Positions 1-20,288 of a stretch of 20,536 nucleotides of DNA are shown here, in pieces. Source of the stretch: Thermodesulfobacteriota bacterium. Lineage in GTDB: Bacteria > Desulfobacterota > Desulfobulbia > Desulfobulbales > SURF-16. A model generated the notes under the pieces. It made no database searches. It saw only the letters and a list, made by a program, of their open reading frames with translations, and had not been told where the DNA came from. Location of the stretch: the NCBI GenBank assembly GCA_039715015.1, contig JBDLIE010000048.1, forward strand, positions 1-20,536, written 5' to 3'. Each line of letters starts with the position of its first letter. Position 1 is the first letter of the stretch. A program made the translations under genes and the position numbers.

Positions 1-686
1 GTTTTTGTGTCTTGCAGGGAAAGGCTTCTATTGTCGAGATCAACCTGTTTCCAGCGGAGCTTTGCCGCCTCATCGGTCCGCATCCCGGTTTGCAAGAGGG
101 TGAGGATGAACGGGTGGAGCTTTTGGTTGCGGCTTTTTGCACATTCCTCAATAAGCCGATGTCCTTCTTTGATAGACAAAAATCTCTTGCGCCCCTTTGG
201 TGCTGGAGGCCGCTTGATAGCTTTGACCGGATTCTCCACCGGCAGCTCCTGCTCCATTTTTTCAATATTGAACAGATCAGAAAGTAGGGCAAGCTCCTGC
301 CGGACACTGTAAGCGCTGATCTCTTCTAGGCGGTCATCTCGATATTGCGCCATCACTGCCGGGGTTATTGCGCTGATCGGGGTATCTTTGCCCAGGCCTT
401 TTGCGAGCCGAGCAATGGATCTTTTTTCTCTGTCATGGGTAGTAGCAGCCTTCTTGGCGCTCACTTTGTCCTGGTATTTTTGCAGGGTAGCCCCCAGTGG
501 TACCTAGTCTGCCAATCTTGGGTCTTTATATCTCCTGGCCAGGATAGCAGCCTCTATTTCCCCTGCCCAGGCTCTGGCCTTCATTTTTGAGGGAAATGTT
601 CTGCTTACTGCCCGGTGACCTTTCATGCGCACCGTTGCTGTTACCGATGTTTTTGTCTTTCCCTTCCTGACCTGGTAGGTTGCCAC
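1..686 (-). pseudogene. Tyrosine recombinase/phage-type integrase, interrupted by one in-frame TAG (504-506); 3' end runs off the window
   Basis: Manual translation from GTG at 686: MATYQVRKGKTKTSVTATVRMKGHRAVSRTFPSKMKARAWAGEIE (arm-binding-like N-terminus)...PRLAD*VPLGATLQKYQDKVS...TPAVMAQYRDDRLEEISAYSVRQELALLSDLFN...NPVKAIKRP...LLQTGMRTDEAAKLRWKQVDLDNRSLSLQDTK. The frame stays open from 503 to the window edge and contains the TGMRxxE catalytic-Arg box. It lies next to a tRNA 3' fragment. Confidence 0.9.
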
Positions 687-693
687 GCTCTTT

Positions 694-760
694 TGTTGAC
701 AAATGTTGTATTTTTGTTGCACATCTTTTCAAAAAGTTACCAAAAGCTACTAAAAGAACC
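694..760. repeat. Two sets of short direct repeats with ~10-bp period, putative integrase arm-type binding sites
   Basis: TGTTG x3 at 694, 704 and 715; AAAAAGTTAC/CAAAAGCTAC/TAAAAGAACC at 731-760. They lie between the tRNA fragment and the integrase start. Function is inferred. Confidence 0.5.
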
Positions 761-779
761 AACAACAATTAAGACAATG

Positions 780-820
780 AAAAAAGCCCGAACCCCTTTA
801 TTTTCTTAGGGGTTCGGGCT
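780..820 (-). terminator. Rho-independent terminator downstream of the tRNA-Leu fragment
   Basis: Perfect 13-bp inverted repeat AGCCCGAACCCCT (785-797) / AGGGGTTCGGGCT (808-820) with an A-run at 780-785 (U-tail on the minus strand). Confidence 0.85.
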
Positions 821-829
821 GTGTTGTGC

Positions 830-884
830 TGGTACCGGAGGTCGGGATCGAACCGACATGGGGTTGCCCCCGCGGGATTTTGAG
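830..884 (-). mobile_element. 3' half of tRNA-Leu(CAA): att-site duplication, not an intact tRNA
   Basis: Minus strand reads CTCAAAA TCCCG C GGGGGCAACCCC AT GTCGG TTCGATC CCGAC CTCCGGT ACCA: anticodon loop with CAA, long variable arm, T-arm and CCA end. Similarity stops at the anticodon loop; no D-arm or 5' acceptor strand is present. Confidence 0.9.
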
Positions 885-1083
885 CATTTCTCATGGAGCC
901 TTTTGCTGCAATAGCTTAATTTCAATTTTCTTATATTAATAGGCTTGTAACGTGTCTGCTAAAATAAGGTCTATTCACAATGTGCCACTCGTTTCCTCTG
1001 AGGGATAAAACCAGCCCTCTTCTGGCTCCTCATTGATGACTGATGTTTCTTGTTTTCACGCTGCAAACCTTGAACGACCATTT

Positions 1084-1099
1084 TGTAGCTCACAGAACA
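1084..1099. promoter_or_regulatory. NifA upstream activator sequence for nifV
   Basis: TGT-agctcacaga-ACA, exact TGT-N10-ACA, ~120 bp upstream of a -24/-12 promoter. Confidence 0.7.
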
Positions 1100-1217
1100 T
1101 GCAGTTTTACATAAATGTTATTCCACCCCATGGAACACTTGGCCTTGCCTTATTTTCTGCAACGAACTATCCCACACTTAACAAGGGAAAGAATATTTCC
1201 CGCTTTTCTCTCGTCTG

Positions 1218-1233
1218 TGGCATGCCTTTGGCA
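1218..1233 (+). promoter_or_regulatory. sigma54 (-24/-12) promoter of nifV
   Basis: TGGCATGCCTTTGGCA: GG-N10-GC spacing, close to the TGGCACG-N4-TTGCA consensus. Confidence 0.7.
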
Positions 1234-1398
1234 ATAACTATTTCTAACAGGCGAGGATGGTTGTCTTACTTCCCATGACGCAATTCTTCCTCGCACAAGT
1301 TAATAGCCATCTCCACCTTCCTCCAAGTCCCTGGATACCTTAATGGTAGGGTATCCAGGGTGGGGCTTTACAGGAGATGGTACCCATGAGACGTCACA

Positions 1399-2520
1399 TT
1401 GCTCAGACTCATAGACACAACTCTGCGCGAAGGAGAACAGACCTCTGGTATTCACCTCTCTCTTGCAGCTAAGAAGCAGATCTTCGCCGGATTGGCAATG
1501 ATCGGCGTTGATGAGATTGAAATGGGTGGAGCCACCGTTGCCAATCCGGACCTTGCCAAGCTGTCTAGATATGTTGGTGAACATTTCCCCGGACAGTCCG
1601 TTTCACTTTGGTGTCGGTGTCTTGAAGCCGATATCCGTTTTGCAGCAACGCTCAGGCCTTCCGTGCTTTCTCTTTCCATCCCGGCCTCGGACCTCCATCT
1701 TGCCAAGAAGTTTGGCAAAGACCAGGTCTGGGCCTGTGCCAAAGTTGCGGCCTCAGTGCGTCTTGCTCTTTCTCTAGGTATTAAGAAGGTGGCCCTGGGA
1801 CTTGAGGATGGCAGTCGGGCTGACCGTGACTTTCTTCGCCTGCTTGGCAAGGTAGCCAAGGATGCCGGGGTTTTTCGAGTCCGAATTGCCGATACGGTTG
1901 GTGTTGCTGATCCAACGATGATGGCCGAGCTTGTTGGGTTAATTGCTGAAACAGGTTTGGATGTGGCAGTGCATTGCCATAATGATTTCGGCATGGCCAC
2001 GGCAAATACAATCACGGCCTTTGGCGCCGGTGCCAAATGGGGGGACGTGACCATCCTTGGCCTTGGAGAACGAGCCGGCAATAGCAGGCTCGAGGAAGTC
2101 CTTGCTTATCTTGTCCTCCAGAAAGGATCGACAAAATATAATCTTGAAGAGGTCGTCAAACTCTGCCGTCAGGTGGCCCAAGAAACCGGGCGGCATATCC
2201 CCAGCCATCAGCCCTTGTTAGGCGAAGCCATTTTTGCCTGTGAGTCGGGCATTCATCAGCAAGGGCTGTTGGCCGACCCCACCACCTACGAGCCCTTTGC
2301 CCCGGAGCTTATTGGCAAGAAAAGAACATTATTGCTAGGTTCAGGCAGTGGCCGTCATGGCCTGCGCGCCACCCTAGAGCGTTTGCAGATTCCTAAGCCT
2401 GACGATGGCGATTTTCTTCATCTTTGGAAACGGATGCGTACGCAGGCCGCCCACCTCAGGCGTCCCCTCCATGACCGGGAAATCTACCAGCTGGCTATTA
2501 ATGGCAGCAGCCTTTTGTAA
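1399..2520 (+). CDS. nifV: Homocitrate synthase (NifV, DRE-TIM family)
   Basis: DTTLREGEQ, IADTVG, HCHNDFGMATAN, GLGERAGN and ESGIH motifs; nif context. The TTG start is uncertain (see findings). Confidence 0.88.
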   Translation: MLRLIDTTLREGEQTSGIHLSLAAKKQIFAGLAMIGVDEIEMGGATVANPDLAKLSRYVGEHFPGQSVSLWCRCLEADIRFAATLRPSVLSLSIPASDLHLAKKFGKDQVWACAKVAASVRLALSLGIKKVALGLEDGSRADRDFLRLLGKVAKDAGVFRVRIADTVGVADPTMMAELVGLIAETGLDVAVHCHNDFGMATANTITAFGAGAKWGDVTILGLGERAGNSRLEEVLAYLVLQKGSTKYNLEEVVKLCRQVAQETGRHIPSHQPLLGEAIFACESGIHQQGLLADPTTYEPFAPELIGKKRTLLLGSGSGRHGLRATLERLQIPKPDDGDFLHLWKRMRTQAAHLRRPLHDREIYQLAINGSSLL

Positions 2521-2533
2521 GCAACCCAGCCTG

Positions 2534-3589
2534 TTAGTAAAGCCTGCGAAAAGCCGAAGCCTTAATCACTGCCACTACTTCAGCACCTTTTTTGATATCA
2601 AGTTCGCGCACTGATTCCGGCACGATCTGGGAGACGATACTGCCGCCATTAATGGCCAATTCCACCCCCATCCTATTGCCGTCGCCAAAGACATCCAAAA
2701 TCAGACAAGGCAGGAGGTTGCGGGCACTGGTGGCCTCAGGGTGCTTCTTAAAGAGGGTGACATCCTTGGCGCCCAGTTCAAAGAGGTTGTCGCCCTTGTC
2801 GCCAGGCTCGGCAAGGATAAGCTCGCTGCTCCCCCACCTATAAGACCAAAGATCGCCATGTGGGCTCGGAGAGCTTAGGTTCAGGAGATTGGCATAACCC
2901 CGGCTGCCTGATACCAGATGACGGCGGGCCAGATCTTCGACAGCCATGCGCTGATCCAGCCGGCCATTATCAAAAACCAAGACCTCGTCGGTCATCAAGC
3001 GGATCTCCTCAAGGGAATGGCTGATAAAGAGAAGGGGAACCTTAAACTGCTCCAGGACCTTTCGCAGGTAGGGGATAATCTGGAATTTCAGCTCCTGATC
3101 AAGGCCGGTCAGGGGTTCGTCCATCAAGATGAGGCGCGGATAGGCAAGCACGGTTCGCCCCAGGGCAACCCGTTGCCGCTCGCCGCCGGAAAGCCTGTTC
3201 ACTCCACGATCCAGGAGATGCTCAAGGTTGAGGGCCTTAATTATTGCTTCCGGGGTGATGCGCCGCTGCGCTGCCGGAGTGCGCTGCCAGCCGTACATTA
3301 GATTGCGGTGGACATTCATGTGCGGGAAGAGGTGGGAGTGCTGAAAAACCACACCGATCCGGCGCTCTTGAGGTGACAGGTTGATCTTTTTTTCGCTGTC
3401 AAAAAGAGTGAAGTCATCAAGGATAATCCTACCCTTGTCTGGTCTAAGCAGCCCGGCCAGGATGTGCATGAGGGTGGATTTACCGCTGCCAGAAGGGCCG
3501 AAAATGCCGCATTTTTCTCCGGCCAGACTAAAGGCAACCTGCAGGGAAAAATCGCCTATGTTTTTTTCGACATCTACCTCAAAATGCAC
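2534..3589 (-). CDS. modC: Molybdate ABC transporter ATP-binding subunit with C-terminal TOBE domain
   Basis: Walker A GPSGSGKST, LSGGERQRVALGR, LMDEP, ISHS; C-terminal 'ELDIKKGAEVVAVIKAS' TOBE-like segment. Confidence 0.95.
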   Translation of the reverse strand: MHFEVDVEKNIGDFSLQVAFSLAGEKCGIFGPSGSGKSTLMHILAGLLRPDKGRIILDDFTLFDSEKKINLSPQERRIGVVFQHSHLFPHMNVHRNLMYGWQRTPAAQRRITPEAIIKALNLEHLLDRGVNRLSGGERQRVALGRTVLAYPRLILMDEPLTGLDQELKFQIIPYLRKVLEQFKVPLLFISHSLEEIRLMTDEVLVFDNGRLDQRMAVEDLARRHLVSGSRGYANLLNLSSPSPHGDLWSYRWGSSELILAEPGDKGDNLFELGAKDVTLFKKHPEATSARNLLPCLILDVFGDGNRMGVELAINGGSIVSQIVPESVRELDIKKGAEVVAVIKASAFRRLY

Positions 3590-3593
3590 GCCT

Positions 3594-4277
3594 CTACCTC
3601 TTCCTAAATGAACGGGCCGAAGCCTCGCTGATCAGCAGCACAACAAACGAAAGAGCTATGGAGACCAAACAGAGCGACAAGGCCATACTGTCGCCTCCCG
3701 GCGTGTTGGTATATTCATAGATGGCCAGGGGAATGGTCTGGGTAACACCGGGGATATTGCCGGCCAGGATAATAGTTGCGCCAAATTCGCCGAGGCTTCT
3801 GGCAAACATCAGGGTCATACCGGCGACAATGGCCCGCCCGGAGAGGGGCAGGATAATGGTGTACACACTGTCCCACCACTTGGCCCCTAAAGTTCGGGCT
3901 GCCTGAAGATAGTGTCCGTCGATGCCCTCCATGCCGATACGGATGGAGCGGACCAGAAGCGGAAAACCCACCACAGAAGAGGCAATCACCGCTCCCTTCA
4001 GAGTAAAAATAATCCGCAGGTCAAGAAAGCGCAGAGCCGGACCAAGGGTGCCGGACTGGCCAAAGAGCAACAGGAGCAGATAGCCGATAACCACTGGTGG
4101 TAATACCAGAGGCAGGTTGACGATCCCTTCTAAAAGGGTGCGGCCTGGAATCCTGGTGAAGACCAGCAGGTAGGCAGTGGCAATGCCAAAGGGCAGGGAG
4201 AGCAGAGTGCCAGCCGTGGCAACTTTGAGTGACAGAACAATGGCCTGTATATCCTGAGGGGTGAGCGATAACATCAT
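3594..4277 (-). CDS. modB: Molybdate ABC transporter permease
   Basis: LPLVLPPVVIGYLLL, AARTLGA (EAA loop), FARSLGEFGATI, NIPGVTQTIPLAIY. Confidence 0.95.
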   Translation of the reverse strand: MMLSLTPQDIQAIVLSLKVATAGTLLSLPFGIATAYLLVFTRIPGRTLLEGIVNLPLVLPPVVIGYLLLLLFGQSGTLGPALRFLDLRIIFTLKGAVIASSVVGFPLLVRSIRIGMEGIDGHYLQAARTLGAKWWDSVYTIILPLSGRAIVAGMTLMFARSLGEFGATIILAGNIPGVTQTIPLAIYEYTNTPGGDSMALSLCLVSIALSFVVLLISEASARSFRKR

Positions 4278-5089
4278 CTTTGCTGCAAATCAGGATCGGG
4301 CACCGATGCAGTCTCAAAACCATAGTTGGTGAGTATTTTGCTGGCTTCGTGGCTCTTGAGAAAGCTAAAAAATGCTTGGGCCGCGTTGTTTTTAGCGCCA
4401 TGAAGAGTGAGGCCCATGGGGTAGACTATTCGCTCATGGAGCTCTGCCGGAACGTTGAAAAGAATTGTAGCATGGCGGCCAAGCAGGGCATCGCTGCGGT
4501 AGACAAAGGCGCCGTCCACTTCGCCGCGCTCGGCATAAATCAATGCCTGGCTGACATCCTTAGCCATGACCAGCTTATGTTCCCTGACCATCTGTTGGTA
4601 AATCCCAGCCTTTGTCATGGCCTGGGCAGCATACTGGCCGGCCGGTACACTCCGTGGGCTGCCGATGGCTATGTGGGACAGAGAGGCCACATCCTTCATG
4701 GTTTTTATCCTTGTCTGGTCTCTGCCGACAAAAACAAGGGCATTATAGGCAAAATCATGGACTGTTTGTGGCTTGATGGCCTTTTTTGGGACGAGATAAT
4801 CCAGCCATTTCTGGTTGGCAGAGATGTAGATATCAGCAGGCGCTCCTTGGAGGATCTGTTTGGCCAGGGAGCCTGACGAGGCAAAATTGGGAAGAATCGT
4901 TATGTCGGGGTTTTCTTTGGTGAATGATCTGACCAATTCTTTGACCGCGTCGTTCATGCTGGCAGCAGCCGAAAGCCGCACCTCAGCAGAAAGGGCCGGC
5001 AGCGGCACCAGTAGCAAGGCCAGGAGCAGCATTATTGCCATGGATAAAATGCTGCGCCCTATTTTCGTTGGTCCTGCCACTCTTGCCAT
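4274..5089 (-). CDS. modA: Molybdate ABC transporter periplasmic binding protein
   Basis: Signal-peptide-like N-terminus, SAAASM, NFASSGSLAKQI, APADIYISAN, SVPAGQYA, AFVYRSDA; GGAG RBS; 4-bp overlap with modB. Confidence 0.95.
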   Translation of the reverse strand: MARVAGPTKIGRSILSMAIMLLLALLLVPLPALSAEVRLSAAASMNDAVKELVRSFTKENPDITILPNFASSGSLAKQILQGAPADIYISANQKWLDYLVPKKAIKPQTVHDFAYNALVFVGRDQTRIKTMKDVASLSHIAIGSPRSVPAGQYAAQAMTKAGIYQQMVREHKLVMAKDVSQALIYAERGEVDGAFVYRSDALLGRHATILFNVPAELHERIVYPMGLTLHGAKNNAAQAFFSFLKSHEASKILTNYGFETASVPDPDLQQR

Positions 5090-5236: not shown

Positions 5237-6871
5237 TTAACTCCCTTCATCCAGGGCAAAGCTGGGCCGGACCAGGTTAAACTTCTTGATTCGATAGCCC
5301 ATCTGGCGCTGGGTAAGCCCCAACGCCCGGGCAGCCCGGGCCTGTACCCAGCCGTTGCGACGCAGAGCGGCCTCAATCTCCTGGCGTTCCATATCGCGTA
5401 ACGAGCTGGGGGCAAGGGGCTGAGAAAATGGTGTGTTCTGGGGCATACTGACTGGTACCTCTGGCATACTCTCCGGTGCCTGAACATGAGGCACCCGACC
5501 CATATGGTCGTGAAGATCCATGGGCCTGATCACCATATCATCAGCCAAGATCACCAACCGCTCAACTAGGTTCTGCAACTCCCGGACATTGCCGGGCCAC
5601 GAATAATTGACCAGGTAATCAAGGGCATCATGGGCCAGAATCACATCCTTATCATTACGCTCATTGCTGGAGCGCAGAAAATGCTCAAGGAGCAAAGGGA
5701 TATCATCCCTTCTCTCTCTAAGGGGCGGAAGGCTGACCGGTACCACATTGAGGCGATAGAAAAGATCGCTGCGGAACTGACCACGGTTGACCGATTCCTC
5801 AAGATCAATATTGGTGGCGGCAATGATGCGCACATCAACGGTGATGGTGCGGGTGCCGCCGATCCGCTCAAACTGGCTTTCCTGTATTACACGCAGGAGC
5901 TTGGCCTGGAGGAGGAGCGGCATCTCGCCGATTTCATCTAAAAAAATGGTGCCGCCGTGGGCCAGCTCAAAGCGGCCAGGCTTGGCGCTACTGGCCCCGG
6001 TAAAGGCACCTTTTTCATGACCAAGGAGTTCGCTTTCCAGCAGATTTTCCGGTAGAGCAGCACAGTTAACCTTGATAAAGGCCCCATCTTTTCTGGGACT
6101 GGCCTCATGGATGGCCCGAGCCACAAGCTCTTTGCCGGTACCTGATTCCCCCAAGAGCAGAGCGGTTGCCTTGCTGGGCGCTACCTTTTCAATGGTCCAG
6201 AATACCTCCTGCATGGCATGTGACTTGCCAATGATGTAATGGCGGTTAAAGCGGCTATGGAGCTCTGCCTTAAGTGATTTATTCTCCTCCACCAGCCGTT
6301 CTTCCTTCTGGGCAATGGACTTGTGAAGGACGAGAAACTGGCTGATCAGGGTGGCAAGGACATTTAAAAAGCTGACATCCTCCTCAAAGGCAACCTCAGG
6401 GCCAAAGAGACAATCCACAGTGAGAACTCCGACGGGCCTGCTCTCCACAAAAAGTGGCACGCCGATAAAGGAGAGTTTCTTTTTGCTGATTCTTCGCGCC
6501 CCGGTGCGGTTCAAAAAGAGGGGTTCACTGTTGACATCCGGCACCACGCAGGGTGAGCCAGTCTGAAAAATCTGACCGCAGACACCCTCTGACAACCCGT
6601 AGATGCCCCGGCGCTCCTCTTCGATACTGAGACCATAGGAGGCCTTGATGCTCAGGCGTTTTCTCTTAGGATCGACAAGAACCAGGGATGCTCTCTCCAT
6701 GCGGAGAATATCGTGGAGGACCTGCAGCACTCGGCCCAGGGTGGTATCTAAGTGGACGGCCTCGCCAATGAGTTTGCACACCTCAGAAAGGGCCCGAATT
6801 TTCAGGGTCTCCAGATGAGGGGGCGCTGGTGGCATGTCGGCGGCCAGTGTCGTTTTATCCATATAATCCAT
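5237..6871 (-). CDS. nifA: NifA-type sigma54-dependent activator (GAF-AAA+-HTH)
   Basis: N-terminal GAF domain, [35 protein letters not shown] and C-terminal HTH ([23 protein letters not shown]). Start moved from 6985 to ATG at 6871 because GAGAGG precedes it and a sigma54 promoter lies inside the longer ORF. Confidence 0.93.
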
Positions 6872-6952
6872 GTTCAACCTCTCATTGCCGACCATGCAGG
6901 AAGTCCTGCGGCCTCTCTCCAGACCATAATTGTCGGCTTTCGACCAAGGTAG

Positions 6953-6968
6953 AGCAACATACGTGCCA
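6953..6968 (-). promoter_or_regulatory. sigma54 (-24/-12) promoter of nifA
   Basis: Minus strand TGGCACGTATGTTGCT, a full match to the consensus. Confidence 0.85.
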
Positions 6969-7191
6969 TGTCGTAAAAACGCCATTTTCGGGCCATTTTT
7001 GATAGAAATGACTACTTTTTTGTAGGTGGAGGGGTGGGATTTCTACAATTTTGTCTTTTTTCGTTGTTTTGAAGAGGGGCGCTAGGGGAAAAGATGATTG
7101 CTCAATTTGGTTTCTCAGAATTTCGTGATGAACCTTCTGTTCCCGTAGTGATCATTTCATAGTTTTGGCTTCCTAAATTGCTCTACCTTTT

Positions 7192-7398: not shown

Positions 7399-8286
<888 letters not shown>

Positions 8287-8432: not shown

Positions 8433-8528
8433 CGCGTTCCTCAAAAATTATTGATTCCCGGCTACACGGGTATCGAAATAGATAAACAATAAGTGTTGGT
8501 CGAGGACGGCCAATGTGGAGATAAAACA

Positions 8529-8879
8529 ATGCTAACTATGATCAGATCAATCATTCGTCCTGAAAAAGCGGACGCCGTGCTTGCCGCTCTTATGGATGCA
8601 GGCTTCCCAGCTGTTACCAAATATGCTGTTGCCGGTCGCGGTAAACAACGCGGCATTAAAATCGGCGAGGTCACCTATGATGAGCTTCCCAAGGTCATGC
8701 TGATGAGCGTGGTCAAAGCGGAGGACAAGAATTTCGTTATTGAAACCATTATGGATACCGCCCGTTCCGCAGGTAAAGGTGCCTTTGGTGACGGCAAAAT
8801 CTTTGTCAGCGAAGTGGAGGAATCCTACACCATTAGCTCCGGTGTCAAGGAGACCGCTGCAGAGGAGGTGGCGGCATGA
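8529..8879 (+). CDS. nifI1: PII-family nitrogenase regulator NifI1
   Basis: IIRPEK, GRGKQRG, YDELPK, GAFGDGKIFV; located between nifH and nifD; GGAG RBS before ATG at 8529. Confidence 0.92.
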   Translation: MLTMIRSIIRPEKADAVLAALMDAGFPAVTKYAVAGRGKQRGIKIGEVTYDELPKVMLMSVVKAEDKNFVIETIMDTARSAGKGAFGDGKIFVSEVEESYTISSGVKETAAEEVAA

Positions 8880-9250
8880 AAGAGGTGATCGCCGTTGTGC
8901 GCATTAACATGATGAACCAGACCAAGCAGGCCCTCACCGATTGTGGTGTAGATGCCTTCTTTGCCCACGAGGCCCATGGCCGGGGTCTTGGCTTCGTCAA
9001 TCCCCAGATCTTGGAGGGCGCGGAGCAAGGCTATGAAGAGGCCGCTACCCTCCTCGGTGAAAAGGGCAAGCTCTACCCCAAGCGGATGATTACTGCCGTG
9101 GTGGAAGACAGCCAGGTGGCCTGCGTAGTGGAAACGATTGTCAACACAAACCAGACCGGCATGCCGGGCGACGGTAAGGTTTTTGTCTTGCCCATAAGCG
9201 ATGCAGTCCGGGTCAGGACTGGTGAGGTGGGCGTTAAGTCCATTTCATAA
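8876..9250 (+). CDS. nifI2: PII-family nitrogenase regulator NifI2
   Basis: MKEVIAVVRINMMNQTK, GRGLG, PKRMI, NQTGMPGDGKVFVLP, VRVRTGE; ATGA overlap with nifI1. Confidence 0.92.
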   Translation: MKEVIAVVRINMMNQTKQALTDCGVDAFFAHEAHGRGLGFVNPQILEGAEQGYEEAATLLGEKGKLYPKRMITAVVEDSQVACVVETIVNTNQTGMPGDGKVFVLPISDAVRVRTGEVGVKSIS

Positions 9251-10923: not shown

Positions 10924-11034
10924 GGGGACAGATTTTATTTTTCCAGCTCCGAAGCCGGGGACAGAATGATTTTCACCAAACCCGTGAAATAAATTCAGTC
11001 CCCTCAAATCGGAGAAAAATTAAATCTGTCTCCC
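10924..11034. repeat. Nested GGGGACAGA-type inverted repeat (REP-like) element
   Basis: GGGGACAGATTTTATTTTTCC (10924) and GGGGACAGAATGATTTTCAC (10957), followed by inverted copies GTGAAATAAATTCAGTCCCC and AAAAATTAAATCTGTCTCCC. Confidence 0.75.
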
Positions 11035-11069
11035 GGTTCGAATCAACAAAAATCATTGAGGATAGATCA

Positions 11070-12581: not shown

Positions 12582-13739
12582 ATGACCATTATCCCCATCA
12601 AAGAAAATAGCGATGGTGGCGGCTGCGGCTGCAAGGTCCCGGCGTGGATCACCCTGCCGGTGGCCCCCCATGCCGCAGCCCGTTCCCGTTTCGGCGGGGA
12701 CGAGAAATTGCCCCAGGCGATTCCTCTTTATGGAGCCCTGACCTGGGTGGACGACCTGCAGGAAAGGGGTAGGTCCATCGCCGGGCTGGATATTAATGGC
12801 CCGGGAGATCCCCTGGCTACCCTGCCCATGACCTTGGAGATCCTGGCTATGCTGCGCGAGAAGCATCCGGAATTTGCCTTTGGGATTACCACCCTGGGCC
12901 TGGGTCTTGCCGAGAATGCTGATCTGTTGGCCGAGCATGGTGTGAGCAAGGTCACTCTGCTGGTGGATGCAGTTAAACCGGAGACGATGAAGAAGCTGTA
13001 TGCCTGGATTCGGCCCGGCAAACGGAATATGCCACTGGCCAAGGCCGCTGCAACCCTAATTGATGAACAGGGCAAGGGTATTTCGGCTTGCCACGCTGCT
13101 GGAATAGAAGTGGCTGTCCATACCACGGTTTATCTTAACGTCAATGAAGGAGAGGTGGAGGAAATAGCCCGCCTCGTCTCCAGCCTCGGCGCAGAGTCCA
13201 TGATCCTGTTGCCCGGCAAAGGCTGGTCTGAGGGTGAAGAGAAGCTCTCCCTGGCCTTGCCTGCACCAGAAACAATGGAGCGCCTGAGCGAGTCGGCGGC
13301 AGGGCACCTTACGACTGCCCAGCCCCTTAAAGCGGAAGGCCTTGGAGAAATAACACCCCAGGACTCCTGCGAAACCATGGCCCTGCCCAAGGCCACTGCT
13401 GACCGCCCCAATGTGGCGGCATTGAGCTCCAACGGCATGGATATCGATCTCCATCTGGGCCAGGCCATTAAGGCTCTGATTTATGGCCCAAGGGAAGACG
13501 GTTTGGCCTGTCTGCTTGAGGCCCGAGATTTGCCTGAGCCTGGCGGCGGCGAAAGCCGTTGGCAGCAGGTGGCCGAAACTTTAGACGATTGTTTTGTCCT
13601 TCTGGCGGAAAGTGCCGGCCAGAAGCCCCGCGACATTTTAGGCCGGCACGGCCTGCCTATCGTCCTCATTAATGACAATGTCGAAGGCACGGTTGACGTT
13701 CTTTATGGCGGCGGCAAAAAAGAAAAATGTAAAAAATAA
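12582..13739 (+). CDS. NifB-like protein: degenerate radical-SAM domain without CxxxCxxC plus C-terminal NifX/NifB-type domain
   Basis: Aligns by eye to NifB in this window: LPVAP, GPGDP, HGVSKVTL, KKLYAWIR, RPNVAALSSNGMDIDLHLGQA, LDDCFVLL. Confidence 0.85.
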   Translation: MTIIPIKENSDGGGCGCKVPAWITLPVAPHAAARSRFGGDEKLPQAIPLYGALTWVDDLQERGRSIAGLDINGPGDPLATLPMTLEILAMLREKHPEFAFGITTLGLGLAENADLLAEHGVSKVTLLVDAVKPETMKKLYAWIRPGKRNMPLAKAAATLIDEQGKGISACHAAGIEVAVHTTVYLNVNEGEVEEIARLVSSLGAESMILLPGKGWSEGEEKLSLALPAPETMERLSESAAGHLTTAQPLKAEGLGEITPQDSCETMALPKATADRPNVAALSSNGMDIDLHLGQAIKALIYGPREDGLACLLEARDLPEPGGGESRWQQVAETLDDCFVLLAESAGQKPRDILGRHGLPIVLINDNVEGTVDVLYGGGKKEKCKK

Positions 13740-13762
13740 ATTAAAATATCAACTCGTCAAAT

Positions 13763-13860
13763 CCCCTCTCCCAAGATTGGGAGAGGGGTGGAAATCTGAA
13801 GGAGTTCCATCCTTTCTGCTCACCCCTCATCCTAGCCTTCTCCCCTCGAAGGGGCGGAGT
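13763..13860. repeat. CCCTCTCCC/GGGAGAGGG-type palindromic intergenic element
   Basis: CCCCTCTCCCAA-GA-TTGGGAGAGGGG (13763-13788), then CCCCTCATCCTAGCCTTCTCCCCTCGAAGGGG. Confidence 0.6.
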
Positions 13861-13896
13861 AACTTAAGGAAAACGGAAATAATAAGGAGATACATC

Positions 13897-14202
13897 ATGG
13901 CAATCCCGGAAAGACAGATCATAGTCTGCCAGAGCTTTCGCGTCGCAGGTGACAAGAAAGGCATCTGCCATAAGCAGACGGACGGTTTTTTACAATACAT
14001 CGAAGAAGAGGTTCTTGATCGCGGCTTGGACTGTCTGATCACCGCCACCACCTGTCTTAAACAGTGTGACAGTGGGCCGATCATGGTCATTCAGCCTGAG
14101 AACTGGTGGTTCAAGGGTGTGAACAGCGAAGAGATAATCGATACCATCCTTGATGGTCTGGAAGACGGCGAACCTGCGGCGGAGTATCTCATCTCATCAT
14201 AA
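13897..14202 (+). CDS. Thioredoxin-like [2Fe-2S] ferredoxin
   Basis: IIVCQ...GICH...TTCLKQCDSGPIMVIQPENWWFKGV matches the thioredoxin-fold 2Fe-2S family; AAGGAG RBS before ATG at 13897. Confidence 0.88.
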   Translation: MAIPERQIIVCQSFRVAGDKKGICHKQTDGFLQYIEEEVLDRGLDCLITATTCLKQCDSGPIMVIQPENWWFKGVNSEEIIDTILDGLEDGEPAAEYLISS

Positions 14203-14222
14203 ATACTGAGCAAGGAGAAGCA

Positions 14223-14528
14223 ATGACCTCCAAACCCTTAGGAAAACTCAAAACTATCGTTGAGGCAGCAGGTACGGATATCTCCTATGCCTATGAGGAT
14301 CTGGTATTTCTGGCGCACAACTCCTTTCTGCTCCAGTTTACCGAAAGCGACAAGGAGATTCTGATCCATGTAAACAGCGAGGCAGATAGAGCTATGGTGA
14401 GTCGCGATACCGAAACATTAAAGGAGATCGGCCTCAGCCATGAAGTGCGCTTTGCAGATGGAAGTTTATACACCCTGACCCAGGATGATGATGAAAGCAT
14501 CCGCATCGAATTTGGGGAGTGCGCCTGA
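14223..14528 (+). CDS. Hypothetical protein (101 aa, acidic)
   Basis: AAGGAG RBS, tightly spaced within the operon; no motif I can assign. Confidence 0.8.
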   Translation: MTSKPLGKLKTIVEAAGTDISYAYEDLVFLAHNSFLLQFTESDKEILIHVNSEADRAMVSRDTETLKEIGLSHEVRFADGSLYTLTQDDDESIRIEFGECA

Positions 14529-14538
14529 AGGGCAGGCC

Positions 14539-15012
14539 ATGACAACTACTCGTATCCGCCCAGCCCAGACCGCCGATCTTGATGCGTTGGTGGGCCTGCT
14601 GCGTATCCTCTTTGCCCTTGAGGAGGATTTTGACTTTGACACAGTCTGCCAGCACCAGGGCCTTGCCATGATGCTGGCCCATGAGGGCGCCGTTATCATG
14701 GTGGCTGAGGCCGAGGGTCGGGTATTCGGCATGGCCACTGGCCAGCTCACCATATCAACGGCAGAGGGAGGAGCTGCCCTGCTGGTTGAAGATGTGGTGG
14801 TTGCCAAGAAATGGCAGGGCCTGGGTGTGGGGCGAAAATTGATGAAGGCCCTGGAGCAGTGGGCTGGAGAGAGAAAAATAGGGCGACTTCAGCTCCTTGC
14901 TGATCGCAAAAATAAAAACGGCCTGGAATTTTATAAGGCACTCGGCTGGCAGACCACGGAGCTTATTTGTCTCCGCAGGCGGCCTACCGGCGTAAAATTT
15001 GTGAGGAGGTAA
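14539..15012 (+). CDS. GNAT-family N-acetyltransferase
   Basis: TRIRPAQTADL N-terminus, VEDVVVAKKWQGLGVGRKLM acetyl-CoA motif A, NKNGLEFYKALGW motif B. Confidence 0.9.
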   Translation: MTTTRIRPAQTADLDALVGLLRILFALEEDFDFDTVCQHQGLAMMLAHEGAVIMVAEAEGRVFGMATGQLTISTAEGGAALLVEDVVVAKKWQGLGVGRKLMKALEQWAGERKIGRLQLLADRKNKNGLEFYKALGWQTTELICLRRRPTGVKFVRR

Positions 15013-15016
15013 AGCC

Positions 15017-15463
15017 ATGCTGCAAACACAGACATCCCCAGCGGTCAACTTGGTCGGCTTTAGCGATATCAAGAGAGATCCCATCGGCGGCTGGCAGGAG
15101 TTTCTGCAGGAGGGCAATCAATTTCTGGCCACGGCTACTAATGCTTATTCCGGAGGGCGTCAGGCCTTTACCTCCGAGATTCTCTACAACTTGGTGGCTA
15201 TGGCCATTGAAAAATTGATTATGGCCCTGCTCATGAAGAGCGGCAACCTACCCTATAACCACACTATGCACGATCTGGTGGAATCTATGGGTGAGTTTTT
15301 ACCCGGCGGCCTGGCCGGTCTTGGCGAAGAACTCAAATCTCTAGATGCCTTTCAAGAGATTTGTGATGTGGACAGCTATACCATCACACCTCCTACCATG
15401 GCCGAGGTGGCCGGTATGCTAGAGCTTGCCGGGGAAGTACAGGCCCTTACGACAAACCTATAA
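15017..15463 (+). CDS. Putative HEPN-domain protein
   Basis: Helical pattern MAIEKLIMALLMKSGNLPYNHTMHDL resembles the HEPN 'A.EK.lkA.l...g....tH.l..L' signature; GAGGAGG RBS. Family assigned by eye. Confidence 0.6.
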   Translation: MLQTQTSPAVNLVGFSDIKRDPIGGWQEFLQEGNQFLATATNAYSGGRQAFTSEILYNLVAMAIEKLIMALLMKSGNLPYNHTMHDLVESMGEFLPGGLAGLGEELKSLDAFQEICDVDSYTITPPTMAEVAGMLELAGEVQALTTNL

Positions 15464-15496
15464 GCAAATTAATCTTAATGTATAAGGAGAAAAACC

Positions 15497-15718
15497 ATGG
15501 CAAAGAAAGATGTTGAAGACCTACTTGTTGCCGGTGGCGAGGACAAAAATGTACGCGCTAAATACGATGTTCCCGCAACCATGGAGGAGTTTGTAACCCT
15601 GGCTGCTGAAGATGGCTACGACTTCACCGTTGAGGAGCTTGACTCTGTCCTCAAAGAATCGGGCGATGTTTTTGAGAAAAACGGCAACCCGGCCAAACGT
15701 CAGATTTGGTGGGTGTAA
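15497..15718 (+). CDS. Nif11-like small protein
   Basis: EEFVTLAAEDGYDFTVEEL matches the Nif11 leader motif; AAGGAG RBS. Confidence 0.8.
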   Translation: MAKKDVEDLLVAGGEDKNVRAKYDVPATMEEFVTLAAEDGYDFTVEELDSVLKESGDVFEKNGNPAKRQIWWV

Positions 15719-16064: not shown

Positions 16065-17420
16065 ATGGAAGCTGCCCTCAAAGAACGCCAAGACCAGATC
16101 CACCGCACCGGTGAGCAGCCCTTTAACCTGGTCTGTAATAAAGATTCCCTGGCCGGGGCGGTCAGCCAGCGGGCCTGCGTGTTTTGCGGCTCGCGGGTGG
16201 TGCTCTACCCCATTGCTGATGCCCTCCACCTTGTCCACGGCCCAATTGGCTGTGCGGTCTATACCTGGGATATCAGAGGAGCCCTGTCTTCCGGACCGGA
16301 ACTCCACCGCCTCTCCTTTTCCACTGACCTGCAGGAAATGGATGTCGTCTTTGGCGGCGAGAAGAAGCTCTATGCCGCCCTTACCGAACTTATAGAGCGC
16401 CATAGCCCCAAGGCCGCCTTTGTCTATTCCACCTGTATTGTCGGCATTATTGGTGATGATCTGGAGGCGGTGTGTAAGAAGGTAGAGGAAGAGACCGGCA
16501 TCCCGGTGATCCCTGTGAAATCAGAAGGCTTTAAAGGCAATAAGCGGGCTGGTTATACTGCGGCCTGCAATGCTATGGCCCGGCTCATCGGCACCGGCGA
16601 CACCACGGGCATCTCCCCCCATTCTATTAATATCCTCGGCGACTTTAACCTGGCTGGCGAGATCTGGATGATCCGCGATTATTTCAACAAGATCGGCGTT
16701 GAGGTGGTGGCCAACATCACCGGCGATGGCCGGGTGGCTGATATAAAGCGGGCTCATGGCGCTGCCCTGAACGTGGTGCAATGTTCCGGCTCCACAATGG
16801 ACTTGGCCCGGATGATGGAGGACGAGTATGGCGTGCCTTCCATGCGGGTCTCCTATTTCGGCGTTGAGGATATGGCCCAGGCCCTCTATGACGTCGCCTC
16901 TCATTTTAACGATCCTGACATCCTCCGCCGCACCCAGAAGCTGGTCAAGGAAGAGCTTGAGGTTCTGCTTCCCAAACTTGAATTCTACAAAAAGGCGCTG
17001 ACCGGCAAGAAGGCGGCCATCTATGTGGGCGGCTCTTTTAAGGCCTTTTCCCTGGTTAAGGCCTTCCGGCTGGTGGGCATGGAGGTGGTGATGGTCGGTT
17101 CCCAGACTGGCACTGAAGAGGAGTACAGGGAGCTTGCCGAGATCACTGACCCGGGCACCATCATTGTTGATGACACCAACCCTCTGGAACTCACCAGTTT
17201 TCTTGAAGAAAAAGATGTGGATATCTTTGTGGGCGGCGTCAAGGAACGCCCTATTGCCTATAAGCTGGGGGTTGGTTTTTGCGACCATAACCATGAACGC
17301 AAGGAGGCCCTGGCCGGCTTTGTCGGCATGCTTAATTTCGCCGAAGAGGTCTACTCATCGGTGATGAGCCCGGTCTGGCGTTTTACCGAAAGGTTTAAAA
17401 GAGGTAGTTCAGATGACTAA
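16065..17420 (+). CDS. nifE: FeMo-cofactor scaffold subunit NifE
   Basis: SQRACVFCGS, HGPIGCAVYTWDIRG, YSTCIVG, VQCSGS; paralogous to NifD. Confidence 0.96.
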   Translation: MEAALKERQDQIHRTGEQPFNLVCNKDSLAGAVSQRACVFCGSRVVLYPIADALHLVHGPIGCAVYTWDIRGALSSGPELHRLSFSTDLQEMDVVFGGEKKLYAALTELIERHSPKAAFVYSTCIVGIIGDDLEAVCKKVEEETGIPVIPVKSEGFKGNKRAGYTAACNAMARLIGTGDTTGISPHSINILGDFNLAGEIWMIRDYFNKIGVEVVANITGDGRVADIKRAHGAALNVVQCSGSTMDLARMMEDEYGVPSMRVSYFGVEDMAQALYDVASHFNDPDILRRTQKLVKEELEVLLPKLEFYKKALTGKKAAIYVGGSFKAFSLVKAFRLVGMEVVMVGSQTGTEEEYRELAEITDPGTIIVDDTNPLELTSFLEEKDVDIFVGGVKERPIAYKLGVGFCDHNHERKEALAGFVGMLNFAEEVYSSVMSPVWRFTERFKRGSSDD

Positions 17421-18780
17421 GAATCTCAAACCAAACTACATATCCACCACCAACGCCTGCAAGCTCTGCACCCCTCTTGGCGCAGCCCTCGCCTTTAAGG
17501 GCATTGAGGGCGCTGTTCCCTATTTGCACGGCTCCCAGGGCTGCGCCACCTATATGCGGCGCTATATCATCAGCCATTTTAACGAGCCCATTGATATTGC
17601 CTCGTCATCGCTCTCTGAGAAGCATGCGGTGTACGGCGGTGGCCCTAATCTCAAGCTTGGTCTGATGAATGTCACCAAGAAATATCAACCCAAACTCATC
17701 GGCATTGCCACCACTTGCCTTACCGAAACCATTGGTGATGATGTTCGCCTCTTCCTCCACGAGTATGACCGCGAGGTGGCGGGTGACAAACCGCTGATGG
17801 TTCAGGTTTCCACCCCCAGCTATAACGGCACCCATATGGAAGGCTTTCACGATGCCGTCGCCTCGGTGGTGGACACCCTGGCCGGCAAAGATGACAAGAA
17901 GCCCGACACTGGTGATACCATCAACATCCTGCCTGGTTTTGTATCGCCTGCTGATATCCGCTATCTCAAAGAGATTGTCGCTGATTATGGCCTGAATGCC
18001 ACTATTTTGCCTGATATCTCCGAGACCATGGATGGCACGGCTGCCAAGACCTATGAGAAGATCCAGTCTGGTGGCACCCCCCTTTCTGTCATCAAGGCCA
18101 TGGGCGACAGCCTGGCTTCCCTGGAATTTGGCCACACCATGGCCGAAGAGAGCGCTGGCGCCATCCTTAAAGAAAGATTTCAGGTGCCTCAGGAGCAGAT
18201 GCCACTACCTATGGGCATCACCGCCAGTGACCGATTTTTTCAGACCCTTGCCGAACTAAGCGGCCAGCCAACGCCCAGCAAACACGTTTTGGAGCGGGGA
18301 CGGCTAGTGGACAGCTATGTGGACGGCCATAAATACATCTATGGCAAGCGCGCCATTGTTTACGGCGAGGAAGATTTTGTTGTTGGCCTTTGTGCCTTTC
18401 TGGCCGAGATCGGTGTGATGCCGGTGCTCTGCGCTTCGGGCGGTAAGAGTGGCAAGCTCGCTGAGAAGATTAGCGAGGCCACAAGCGACATCCTGCCTGA
18501 GCAACCCCAGGTCTTTGAGGGTATGGACTTTTTCGATATCAGCGAGATGGCGGAGGAGCTAGCACCCGACCTATTGGTGGGCCACTCCAAGGGCTATCCC
18601 CTGGCTCGTAAGCTTGAGATCCCCATGATCCGGGTGGGTTTCCCCATTCACGACCGCATGGGCGGCCAGCGCATCCTCCACCTTGGTTACCGGGGGGCGC
18701 AGAGCCTCTTTGACATGGTGGTAAACGCCATGATCGCCAGGAAGCAGAGCGATTCGCCGATTGGCTATTCCTATATGTAA
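17413..18780 (+). CDS. nifN: FeMo-cofactor scaffold subunit NifN
   Basis: NACKLCTPLGA, HGSQGCATYMRRY, TTCLTETIGDD, GFPIHDR; 8-bp overlap with nifE. Confidence 0.95.
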   Translation: MTKNLKPNYISTTNACKLCTPLGAALAFKGIEGAVPYLHGSQGCATYMRRYIISHFNEPIDIASSSLSEKHAVYGGGPNLKLGLMNVTKKYQPKLIGIATTCLTETIGDDVRLFLHEYDREVAGDKPLMVQVSTPSYNGTHMEGFHDAVASVVDTLAGKDDKKPDTGDTINILPGFVSPADIRYLKEIVADYGLNATILPDISETMDGTAAKTYEKIQSGGTPLSVIKAMGDSLASLEFGHTMAEESAGAILKERFQVPQEQMPLPMGITASDRFFQTLAELSGQPTPSKHVLERGRLVDSYVDGHKYIYGKRAIVYGEEDFVVGLCAFLAEIGVMPVLCASGGKSGKLAEKISEATSDILPEQPQVFEGMDFFDISEMAEELAPDLLVGHSKGYPLARKLEIPMIRVGFPIHDRMGGQRILHLGYRGAQSLFDMVVNAMIARKQSDSPIGYSYM

Positions 18781-18816
18781 ACACAGGACTATTTAAATAT
18801 AAAAACGGAGCACACC

Positions 18817-20103
18817 ATGAAGACAATCAACACCATATCACCTGACCTGAGCCGCCATCCCTGTTTCAATGCCAAGGTAAAGGGCAAATTCGGACGGGTC
18901 CATCTGCCGGTAGCTCCCAAATGCAATATCAAATGTAATTATTGCAACCGTAAGTATGACTGTGTGAACGAATCACGCCCAGGTGTCACCTCCACCATCC
19001 TGTCACCTGAGCAGGCCGTAGTCTATATGGAAAAGGTGCTGATTGCCGAGCCGCGCATCAGTGTGGCCGGGATTGCCGGGCCTGGCGACCCTTTTGCCAA
19101 TGCCGATGAGACCTTGGGCACCATGCAACTCTTGCGTCGCAAATACCCTGATCTCATCCTCTGTCTATCCAGTAATGGCTTAGGAATAGCACCCCATGTG
19201 GACGAGGTGGCTGATATTGGTGTCTCCCATGTCACGGTGACCGTGAACGGTATTGATCCGCGGATCACCAGAAAGATCTACACCTTTGTCCGGGACGGCA
19301 ATATCGTCTACCGCGATATCCAGGCAGCTGAGCTTCTCCTGGCCCGCCAGATGAAGGCCATTGAGAAACTGAAGAGTCGCGGCGTCACGGTGAAGGTCAA
19401 TTTCATCACCATCCCCGGGGTCAACGATCACCATGCCGAAGAAACAGCCAAAGCCATGGCCTCTATGGGTGTTGATCTCTTTAATTGCATGGCCATGCTG
19501 CCCAACGCCGATACCCCCTTTGCAGATCTCGGCGAACCGGATAAACCCACCATGAATAAACTACGCAATAAATGTGAAGAATATCTGCCCCAGATGCGCC
19601 ATTGCAAGCGCTGCCGAGCCGATGCCGTGGGCCTGCTTGGCAAGGACCGCTCCGGCGAGATGGCCGGGTGTTTGAATGCCTGCTCTACCATGCCGGCTGC
19701 CACCTATAAACCGAGGCCTTATGTGGCGGTATCCAGCCTGGAGGGCATGCTGGTTAACCAGCATCTTGGTGAGACCACCAAGTTTTTGATCTATGGTCAT
19801 GAAGGAGAGGGTTATAGGCTCATTGAGGAACGCCCTGCACCCATTCCTGGTGGAGGTATTGGCCGCTGGCAGGCCTTGACCAGGCTTCTGCATGATTGCC
19901 GGGCCGTGCTGGTCAGTGATATGGGCGAGTCTCCGCGCCAGGTTTTTTCCGATGCCGGGATAAAGCCGGTGACCATGTCTGGCTTTATTGAGGTGGGGTT
20001 AAAGGCCGTTTATACGGGTGAGGGAATAAATACCATGAAGAGACGGGCGAAGAAGAGTTGCTCTGGTGGGAGCTGCCAGGGGACCGGGACTGGTTGCGGC
20101 TGA
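18817..20103 (+). CDS. nifB: Radical-SAM FeMo-cofactor biosynthesis protein NifB with C-terminal NifX-like domain
   Basis: HPCF, CNIKCNYC, ESRPG, AGPGD, TVTVN, HCKRCRADA, VNQHLG. Confidence 0.97.
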   Translation: MKTINTISPDLSRHPCFNAKVKGKFGRVHLPVAPKCNIKCNYCNRKYDCVNESRPGVTSTILSPEQAVVYMEKVLIAEPRISVAGIAGPGDPFANADETLGTMQLLRRKYPDLILCLSSNGLGIAPHVDEVADIGVSHVTVTVNGIDPRITRKIYTFVRDGNIVYRDIQAAELLLARQMKAIEKLKSRGVTVKVNFITIPGVNDHHAEETAKAMASMGVDLFNCMAMLPNADTPFADLGEPDKPTMNKLRNKCEEYLPQMRHCKRCRADAVGLLGKDRSGEMAGCLNACSTMPAATYKPRPYVAVSSLEGMLVNQHLGETTKFLIYGHEGEGYRLIEERPAPIPGGGIGRWQALTRLLHDCRAVLVSDMGESPRQVFSDAGIKPVTMSGFIEVGLKAVYTGEGINTMKRRAKKSCSGGSCQGTGTGCG

Positions 20104-20155
20104 GAATCCCTTTGTTTCTTTACACCCTTTCGCGGTTGCATGCCCACAGAGAAGA

Positions 20156-20187
20156 TAACCAACAACGACCAGAGAGCGACCAGAAAC
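20156..20187. repeat. Short direct repeats, putative arm-type sites
   Basis: TAACCAACAA / CGACCAGAGAG / CGACCAGAAAC; same position relative to the terminator and tRNA fragment as the repeats at the left end. Confidence 0.45.
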
Positions 20188-20225
20188 AAAAAAAGGGTTT
20201 GTAGCCAAAAAGCTACAAACCCTTT
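20188..20225 (-). terminator. Rho-independent terminator downstream of the tRNA-Phe fragment (may also serve nifB)
   Basis: Perfect 14-bp inverted repeat AAAGGGTTTGTAGC (20192-20205) / GCTACAAACCCTTT (20212-20225) with an adjoining A-run. Confidence 0.82.
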
Positions 20226-20232
20226 AATGTCT

Positions 20233-20288
20233 TGGTGCCGGGACCAGGAATCGAACCAGGGACACACGGATTTTCAGTCTGTTACTCT
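20233..20288 (-). mobile_element. 3' portion of tRNA-Phe(GAA): att-site remnant/pseudo-tRNA
   Basis: Minus strand AGAGTA ACAGA CTGAAAA TCCGT GTGTC CCTGG TTCGATT CCTGG TCCCGGC ACCA: GAA anticodon, T-loop and CCA end. There is an A-C mismatch in the anticodon stem, and no 5' acceptor strand (GCCGGGA) upstream. Confidence 0.87.

Follow-up and report, generated by a model that had tools for sequence, protein, structure and literature searches.

A native nitrogen fixation gene cluster bracketed by tRNA gene fragments in a Desulfobulbales genome

The window analyzed here is the entire contig C48 (JBDLIE010000048.1; 20,536 nucleotides [nt]) of a Desulfobulbales metagenome-assembled genome (MAG) of 3.0 Mb, 100 contigs, and 50.2% GC. 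It holds a cluster of nitrogen fixation (nif) genes bracketed by 3' fragments of two different tRNA genes, tRNA-Leu(CAA) and tRNA-Phe(GAA), with a tyrosine integrase gene at its left end. G000 denotes the source genome, g1 its genus, and f1 its family; relatives carry G-numbers, their loci L-numbers, and contigs C-numbers. Proteins that share 90% clusters with those of G000 carry names indicating Desulfobulbales and probably Desulfurivibrionaceae. Seven congeners (G001 to G007) were compared, giving eight species of the genus with G000. Nif proteins were named by NCBIfam profile cutoffs, other open reading frames (ORFs) by Pfam, and tRNAs by ARAGORN. The read evidence consists of Logan contigs from two runs of one study, X1 and X2, the share of X2 being too small for use; no RNA run containing the locus was listed. 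Run X1 differs from the window at 4254, 5469, and 19325 at full depth and may represent a near-identical population rather than the source.

Results

The tRNA-Leu(CAA) 3' fragment (829..884, minus strand) marks the junction between the nif segment and a neighboring element, here called element B. It is intergenic, starts exactly at the anticodon loop (CTCAAAA, 878-884), and is identical at 56/56 positions to C8:168-223; no other match of at least 14 nt to the end of tRNA-Leu(CAA) was found in the genome. The last 99 nt of the window (20438..20536) are also the first 99 nt of contig C8 (C8:1-99), on which the intact tRNA-Leu(CAA) gene occupies C8:169-255 on the minus strand (20606-20692 in joined coordinates), 69 bp beyond the window end, followed by pgsA and core genes. 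An arm-like CTCTCCCCA motif (C8:103-111) and then a terminator, T1, stand between the overlap and the intact gene. Since the end of C48 is the start of C8, the nif cluster lies inside a direct repeat with a spacing of 19,776 bp from the intact tRNA-Leu to the 3' fragment. The assembly holds 25 overlaps of 99 nt, every one linking exactly two contig ends; a stop-free frame of 138 to 693 codons crosses 7 of the 19 overlaps tested, and the remaining 12, including that between C48 and C8, show none. As in Islander-type searches, there is an intact tRNA gene with a cognate 3' fragment downstream on the same strand, a spacing within 2 to 200 kb, a fragment outside coding domains, and an empty site in relatives. 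The integrase that such searches call for is absent from the interval: the sole PF00589 match on C48 lies at 6-182, outside the repeat, in a gene interrupted by a TAG codon.

At the other end of the segment, a tRNA-Phe(GAA) 3' fragment (20233..20288, minus strand) is identical to the 3' end of a congener's tRNA-Phe over 47 nt (20233-20279) and matches more loosely to 20288. Its core, CTGAAAA (20271-20277), differs from the Leu core at 1/7 bases. Next to it lies a terminator with CTGGTCG repeats (20162..20230, minus strand) that may be arm-like and are 90% like the stretch after the intact tRNA-Phe in G005. In G003, at an empty site, a degenerate 5' half of tRNA-Phe is located ~130 bp behind tRNA-Leu, and the worn 5' side of the fragment matches it at 19/20 and 15/18 positions. 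A worn 5' side joined to a perfect 3' side would be the expected trace of integration into a pseudo-tRNA, and the fragment is best read as a separate att-like left end; a right end (attR) matching it was not found. In 6/7 congeners the gene orthologous to C12:95-748 is followed by the intact tRNA-Phe; in G000 this tRNA is therefore unassembled, off the 5' end of C12. Other tRNA-Phe 3' fragments in G000 (C77:3904-4010, C66:13838-13923/C91:5-90, and C8:75236-75271) have identities of 83 to 91%. The C77 fragment adjoins toxin-antitoxin-like and ParA-like ORFs, as judged by inspection.

ARAGORN found no whole tRNA in the window, a relaxed threshold yielded noise only, and an Rfam scan of the window gave no tRNA and two weak, chance-level matches. 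Insertion sequence-like repeats in common with the rest of the genome are absent from both junctions. The anatomy given by an earlier reading made from the sequence alone is thus right: it had placed the Leu fragment about 200 bp before the nifV activator site (the TGT-N10-ACA site at 1084) and the Phe fragment 130 bp after the nifB stop (20103), both on the minus strand, both lacking a 5' half, with an integrase following the left one. Its view that the two are not a matching attL/attR pair, and belong to a tandem or nested array, is likewise supported. It also expected intact copies of both genes on the minus strand to the right of the window, which holds for tRNA-Leu(CAA) and not for tRNA-Phe. 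Its interpretation as a whole is partly supported.

The integrase gene (1..686, minus strand; PF24624 and PF00589) belongs to a tRNA-Leu-targeting tyrosine integrase family, forms the head of element B, and stands outside the Leu-Leu repeat. It is truncated by the contig end and carries an in-frame TAG (amber) codon at 504-506, a position at which 0/17 aligned homologs have a stop. Read-through with pyrrolysine was considered and rejected: a PylRS motif had no match, and the residue at this position varies among homologs (S, Q, N, and others); the codon is treated as a nonsense change. The C-terminal half of the integrase was not found elsewhere in the assembly, and a search for loci related to it returned two distant, uninformative ones. 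Between the gene and the Leu fragment is an arm-type region (701..820, minus strand) with a TGCAACA doublet at ~704-723 and a terminator hairpin at 779-820, which is 72 to 73% like those of G004 and G124. Members of the family occur in 82 of 401 genomes of the order. Among the best 30 integrase loci, 21 start ~140 to 180 bp past an intact tRNA-Leu, 2 past a tRNA-Leu 3' fragment, 6 past a tRNA-Arg, and 1 past neither. The order of tRNA end, hairpin, TGCAACA-type doublet, and start codon in these loci is the layout of the window from 884 to 686, so the integrase belongs to element B and not to the nif segment; no integrase was found inside the segment. The left end of a phage-type element B, which runs leftward out of the window, thus comprises the Leu fragment, terminator, and integrase. 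The closest fully assembled relative of the integrase (65%) belongs to a 40.7-kb prophage at tRNA-Leu(TAA) in G004. This prophage (G004:C36, L143-L145) looks complete, with contractile-tail sheath, baseplate, portal, and terminase genes, both att sites, and a proper right end; homologs of its structural genes were not found in the G000 assembly.

In congeners, tRNA-Leu(CAA) is an integration hotspot. The site is empty, as the earlier reading had anticipated for relatives, in three of the six congeners with the tRNA assembled (G003, G004, and G007), where the ortholog of C46:17466-18404 lies within 70 to 240 bp after the tRNA. G002 carries a 12.8-kb insert with AAA/DUF3696 genes at this position, and G005 a Fic gene with other noncore genes; in G006 the contig stops at the site, and G001 is without the tRNA. 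In G000, contig C46 stops 3 kb beyond the C46:17466-18404 gene, in accessory DNA, and no tRNA-Leu fragment was found on it; the array's left end has thus either been eroded or failed to assemble. T1 together with CTCTCCCC is also seen in G058, where it stands at a tandem junction, and in G093, at an island's left end (scores of 83 and 64 versus shuffle maxima of 32 and 40), most of the alignment score coming from the common terminator. A different terminator type follows tRNA-Leu(CAA) in G004, G006, and G007. The G058 locus (G058:C252, L211) is a 13.5-kb island at tRNA-Leu(CAA); its integrase gene lies close to the right end, and its tandem junction carries a second arm type.

The nif genes are the lineage's own, and their composition is native. 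NifD, NifH, NifV, and NifB are present in 7/7 congeners; NifD was found at some level in 19 of 24 family genomes (two of them partial or NifE-level matches), and nifH was found in 25 of 39. G000 falls inside the g1 clade in trees of NifE+N+B (88/82), NifA+V+NifB-like (100/100), and NifB alone (82/99), and likewise for RpoB+C. Fourfold-site distances to congeners are 0.32 to 0.49 for nifD, nifK, nifE, nifN, and nifB versus 0.29 to 0.51 for nine housekeeping genes, and none of the sampled congeners (n = 7) is close enough at synonymous sites to be a recent nif donor. The segment has 53.0% GC versus 50.2% in the genome, and 32% of 111 genome windows lie as far or further in tetranucleotide composition. 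Horizontally acquired islands are judged by absence from relatives, discordant phylogeny, and atypical composition, none of which was found for the cluster. Because nif occurs in all congeners, with within-genus trees and housekeeping-like distances, gain of the trait via this segment is not supported, and the proposal that nitrogen fixation arrived as one ~19-kb module fails.

The comparison of NifHDK with the species tree that had been suggested alongside that proposal gave a mixed outcome: NifENB, NifA/V, and NifB agree with RpoBC, NifDK is weakly placed, and nifH departs. NifH matches that of G016 (a sister genus) at 98%, that of G038 (another family) at 96%, and those of six congeners at 90 to 93%. 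Recent nifH transfer from G016 is ruled out by the fourfold-site distance of 0.54, so any exchange is old. An old exchange or replacement of nifH as a single gene appears to have affected part of the genus, and only nifH looks exchanged. The G007 bin has two nifH-nifI copies (L009 and L166), through duplication or bin mixing. The NifB type of g1/g4/g10 is common to three genera of family f17 (L285-L295), with 76 to 85% to G000 versus 53 to 65% for the other f17 matches.

In relatives, nif lies elsewhere, and its position in G000 is therefore derived. A GATase gene flanks nifV in the congeners G005 and G006 and in 11 genomes from other genera of the family, mostly within a glnK-amtB block, and in four genomes this GATase/nifV block lies 27 to 43 kb upstream of pgsA. 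The GATase gene of G000 is ~85 kb from the tRNA-Leu without nif alongside, and the link is also lost in G001. In G001 and G007, the closest relatives by RpoB (94% and 93%), nifB and a NifX-family gene adjoin a small CXXCH gene, the G000 ortholog of which (C10:29462-29785) has no adjoining nif. At least five different flanks of the cluster occur among the eight g1 species. The nif loci fetched from 31 relatives (716 kb, many loci being cut by contig ends) gave no BLAST match to a tRNA or tRNA fragment. ARAGORN made one doubtful call within a G015 gene and found a transfer-messenger RNA (tmRNA) gene 2 kb from nifB in G016. In G016 (L013:9563-10688) a mini-island with a single AbiEii gene follows this tmRNA and ends in a tmRNA fragment ~1.3 kb from nifB; the idea that the G016 nif cluster lies inside a tmRNA island is ruled out, the fragment closing the mini-island before nif.

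The borders of the G000 segment are tight: native nifV promoter DNA begins 96 bp from the Leu core, and the arm-like repeats at the Phe end lie ~60 bp past the nifB stop. The first 96 bp are an AT-rich spacer (885..980) that has no homolog and may at most be a P-arm stub, the arm doublet not being found in it. From 981, the sequence aligns with the nifV upstream region of G003 (score of 189 versus a shuffle maximum of 39); this native region (981..1398, plus strand) holds the NifA-type TGT-N10-ACA site (1084-1099) and a sigma-54-type -24/-12 element near 1218. It is followed by nifV (1399..2520, plus strand), a homocitrate synthase gene with TIGR02660 as best match, below cutoff (327 versus 463). 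Next come the modA-modB-modC molybdate ABC transporter genes (2534..5089, minus strand), over NCBIfam cutoffs, and nifA (ORF limits, 5237..6985, minus strand; true start probably near 6871), over cutoff for TIGR01817. To the right are nifH (7456..8286, plus strand), over its NCBIfam cutoff; two PII-family genes (8493..9250, plus strand) with weak profile matches, which from their position we take to be nifI1 and nifI2; and the Mo nitrogenase genes nifD and nifK (9263..12443, plus strand), over cutoff for TIGR01282 and TIGR01286. A NifB-like ORF, a 2Fe-2S ferredoxin gene, a 101-amino-acid (aa) ORF, a GNAT gene, a 148-aa ORF, and a Nif11 peptide gene (12582..15718, plus strand) precede nifE, nifN, and nifB (16065..20103, plus strand). 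NifE and NifB are over cutoff, and NifN is just below it (317.5 versus 326.8).

The minimal Mo-nitrogenase set is nifHDKENB, and all six genes are predicted as open ORFs, with H, D, K, E, and B over cutoff and N just under. The cluster, previously described as complete, is not quite so: a NifX-family gene follows nifB in four congeners (G001, G002, G003, and G007), and in G000 it is lost, with no ortholog above 32%. Small ORFs recur across 24 fetched nif loci of relatives (Nif11 in 14, the 101-aa ORF in 9, the 148-aa ORF in 18, and GNAT in 11), and the description of everything between the fragments as nif-related is therefore fair. The 148-aa ORF has no Pfam match. A ModE-like candidate at 5059-5487 is unconfirmed, with no family match and its C-terminal part in 0/24 loci. 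In the NifB-like ORF (12582-13739) the CxxxCxxC radical-SAM motif is absent from 23/23 copies, including that of G000, and the ORF apparently represents a conserved, noncatalytic NifB paralog with a weak NifX-type tail.

Discussion

Our results suggest, with a probability of roughly 0.58, that the locus is a decayed tandem or nested island array at the tRNA-Leu(CAA) hotspot, the inner part of which now holds the native nif cluster. At this hotspot, the phage-type element B, with the integrase of the window, may have integrated by crossover in the anticodon loop. An element A, marked by T1 and the arm-like CTCTCCCCA motif, would then have entered the same tRNA and pushed the left end of B downstream, giving the 56-bp repeat. 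An element of the tRNA-Phe type could subsequently have used the worn tRNA-Phe copy near the left end of A, leaving the Phe junction. The interior is now the native nif cluster; it may have been replaced by movement of nif within the gene pool of the species, with breakpoints within ~60 bp of the nifB stop, where the NifX-family gene was lost, and within 96 bp of the Leu core. With no integrase, no recognizable P arm, no transfer genes, and a broken neighboring integrase, the segment is probably anchored by now; it might still be lost through recombination of the 56-bp repeat, and its retention would reflect selection for diazotrophy. Both junctions look young, since an identity of 56/56 nt bounds divergence at ~5% (rule of three, assuming neutrality and no conversion), versus 30 to 50% at fourfold sites between congeners.

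Several observations weigh against this account. The join of C48 with C8 rests solely on the 99-nt overlap, and the order of events is not shown. T1-like hairpins trail tRNA-Leu(CAA) in many island-free genomes across the order, and G003, scored as an empty site, has the worn Phe half and T1 as well; T1 may therefore be the terminator native to this tRNA gene. To the left of the Leu core there is no right-end (P-arm) doublet of the element B type, and the spacer aligns with the G058 P arm no better than shuffles do; that the left junction arose by site-specific recombination is therefore unproven. On C46, around the expected far flank, the search yielded neither a third Leu fragment nor a Phe attR. 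For the ancestry of the genes, nifV and nifA are somewhat more diverged (0.43 to 0.63 at fourfold sites), NifH groups with G016 (100/98) and not with the congeners, and the NifDK tree sets G016 between G000 and four congeners (weak support), with G002 outside. Approximately unbiased (AU) tests (p = 0.076 and 0.078), in which G002 was left out of the tested clade, neither reject nor show monophyly of the genus.

The evidence for native genes leaves room for a tentative, less probable history in which an unsampled congener or close sister species already held nif in a composite Phe/Leu element that integrated at tRNA-Leu(CAA) in an ancestor of G000, the resident cluster then being lost. The perfection of both fragments (56/56 and 47/47), when other genomic Phe fragments have drifted to 83 to 86%, would fit such a young arrival, as would the emptiness of both ancestral-type nif sites in G000, the foreign-looking nifH, and a NifB type common to genera of another family, one of which has its cluster beside a tRNA-Ser. 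It is opposed by the synonymous distances, at which 0/7 sampled congeners are unusually close, by the agreement of the NifA/V and NifENB trees with RpoBC, and by the lack of any PF03432, PF03135, or G004 phage structural-gene homolog in the assembly. The present data do not separate relocation inside the species from replacement by an unsampled close donor. That a nonfixing lineage acquired nitrogen fixation as one 19-kb module is scarcely credible, in spite of a real tRNA with a direct repeat around the whole cluster, tight borders, and empty sites in congeners: nif is present in 7/7 congeners and most of the family, and trees and synonymous distances fit vertical descent. Gain of the trait is refuted at the genus level and survives only as loss followed by regain, that is, as replacement by transfer.

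Two further explanations were weighed. It is unlikely that there was no element A, that an ordinary rearrangement put nif behind tRNA-Leu, and that B integrated upstream of nifV at CTCAAAA, a secondary site of 7 bp, which would make the 56-bp repeat B's own left end and not an island boundary. The fragment, terminator, arm, and integrase do have the exact left-end layout of the integrase family; an arm doublet is lacking to the left of the core, where the anticodon stem is matched at only 1/8 bases; and with at least five flanks among the eight species, the cluster moves without tRNA sites. This explanation, however, would require a secondary site to occur by chance on the strand of the cognate tRNA and 19.8 kb away from it, in a genome of 3.0 Mb; it does not account for the Phe junction; and no matching right end of element B (arm doublet and then core) was found among 15 doublet-like sites. 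An assembly artifact, with C48 not continuous with C8 or misjoined at a tRNA repeat and nif really at tRNA-Phe or elsewhere, is very improbable. The MAG of 100 contigs is without its intact tRNA-Phe, a contig break signals a branch in the assembly graph, and among the listed X1 Logan contigs that hold the segment at a flat depth near 80, pieces end at 1056 and 20244, bridging neither fragment. Yet each of the 25 overlaps joins exactly two ends, 7 of the 19 tested having a stop-free frame across, and both repeats are shorter than 99 nt. The depth inside the Phe terminator is 91 (15 of it a variant), equal to single-copy depth. The worn Phe site after tRNA-Leu is common to G000 and G003, and the Leu fragment is on C48 itself, with the tRNA on C8 as its sole match.

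A further and rather doubtful possibility is that the 19.8-kb segment is a still-mobilizable nif cassette, which could be looped out by an incoming tRNA-Leu or tRNA-Phe phage integrase or by recombination of the 56-bp repeat. Its circle would be small enough for a phage head, and the locus would be a snapshot of nif becoming portable in Desulfobulbales. No joint between the segment ends was found among the listed Logan contigs, which do not bridge either fragment. No relaxase or type IV secretion genes were found among the window ORFs with NCBIfam and Pfam; relaxase (PF03432) and VirB4-type (PF03135) profiles had no match in G000, in an assembly that lacks element B and from a search that covered these two families. 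The three att pairs and integrases of a tripartite integrative and conjugative element (ICE) were not found, nor was a Phe attR or third Leu site near the locus, in this fragmented assembly.

We compared the locus with published systems. Like Islander/TIGER islands (PMC4383910, PMC12424338), it has an intact tRNA and a downstream 3' fragment on the same strand from the anticodon loop, 2 to 200 kb apart, with a tyrosine integrase at the locus; integration at the anticodon-loop subsite (PMC4383910) and tandem tRNA-island arrays, of which 125 were counted (PMC4383910/PMC12424338), are recognized there. Unlike in Islander islands (PMC4383910), the interval contains no integrase and so does not pass that filter; the neighboring integrase gene is broken and lies beyond the interval, and the genes carried are native, not foreign. 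Mesorhizobium symbiosis ICEs (ICESyms) also have nif genes bounded by tRNA att sites (tRNA-Phe for ICEMlSym R7A), and their tripartite alpha regions are, like the G000 segment, without an integrase and bounded by the sites of several integrases (PMC8627217). These elements span 66 to 854 kb, carry conjugation, relaxase, and excision-control genes, and have proven transfer, whereas in G000 there are 19.8 kb, none of these genes was found, and there is no second att pair (PMC8627217). The Pseudomonas stutzeri nif island is likewise a compact block without integrase or transposase and is likely anchored (PMC4174501); it occupies a conserved cobS-gshP site with short repeats and no tRNA link, whereas the G000 site is lineage specific with a true tRNA repeat (PMC4174501). 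In Nitratidesulfovibrio vulgaris, also a sulfate reducer, a related NifH (85.6%) lies on an accessory replicon, plasmid NC_005863.1, with three related plasmids; these are plasmids of 175 to 202 kb, in contrast to the chromosomal tRNA island of G000.

Nitrogenase was already known in Desulfobulbales (PMC8170396), and nif transfer has been inferred from nearby mobile genes in seep MAGs (PMC9391474). The G000 locus offers a caution for studies such as the latter, as a precisely mapped, real island signature without gain of the trait. It probably represents relocation into an integration hotspot, not a new ability to fix nitrogen, and a route by which native nif could end up between recombinable repeats, which could help explain the patchy presence of nif in the family (25/39). 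The literature searched, supplements aside, contained no account of a nif cluster bounded by tRNA genes in Desulfobulbales.

A parallel may exist in other families. A tRNA or fragment lies within 1.5 kb in 4 of 60 nifB loci from two other families, and three of the four belong to one genus (G322 L315:2493-2700, G328 L289, and G399 L317), in which nifB converges on a tRNA-Ser(CGA) ~140 bp away with the same polarity as in G000; the three genomes count as one event. In G322, NifB falls in the g1/g4/g10 clade, NifDK groups with G195 of f1 (97/96), and the cluster ends in an f1-type GATase flank. A tRNA-Ser repeat closing this cluster was sought in 32 kb and genome-wide and not found, and no integrase motif was found. 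The cluster of this genus looks like the result of an older interfamily transfer with a tRNA gene as its landing site, a hint that nif has come to rest at tRNA genes more than once; if the G000 segment is indeed mobilizable, these clusters, with NifDK and NifB grouping with f1, would be an older landing of a similar kind. Further tRNA 3' fragments in G000 itself match tRNA-Pro(GGG) (47/47; C7:79089-79135, near a tyrosine recombinase gene) and tRNA-Cys (52/52; C57:16655-16706, at a contig end).

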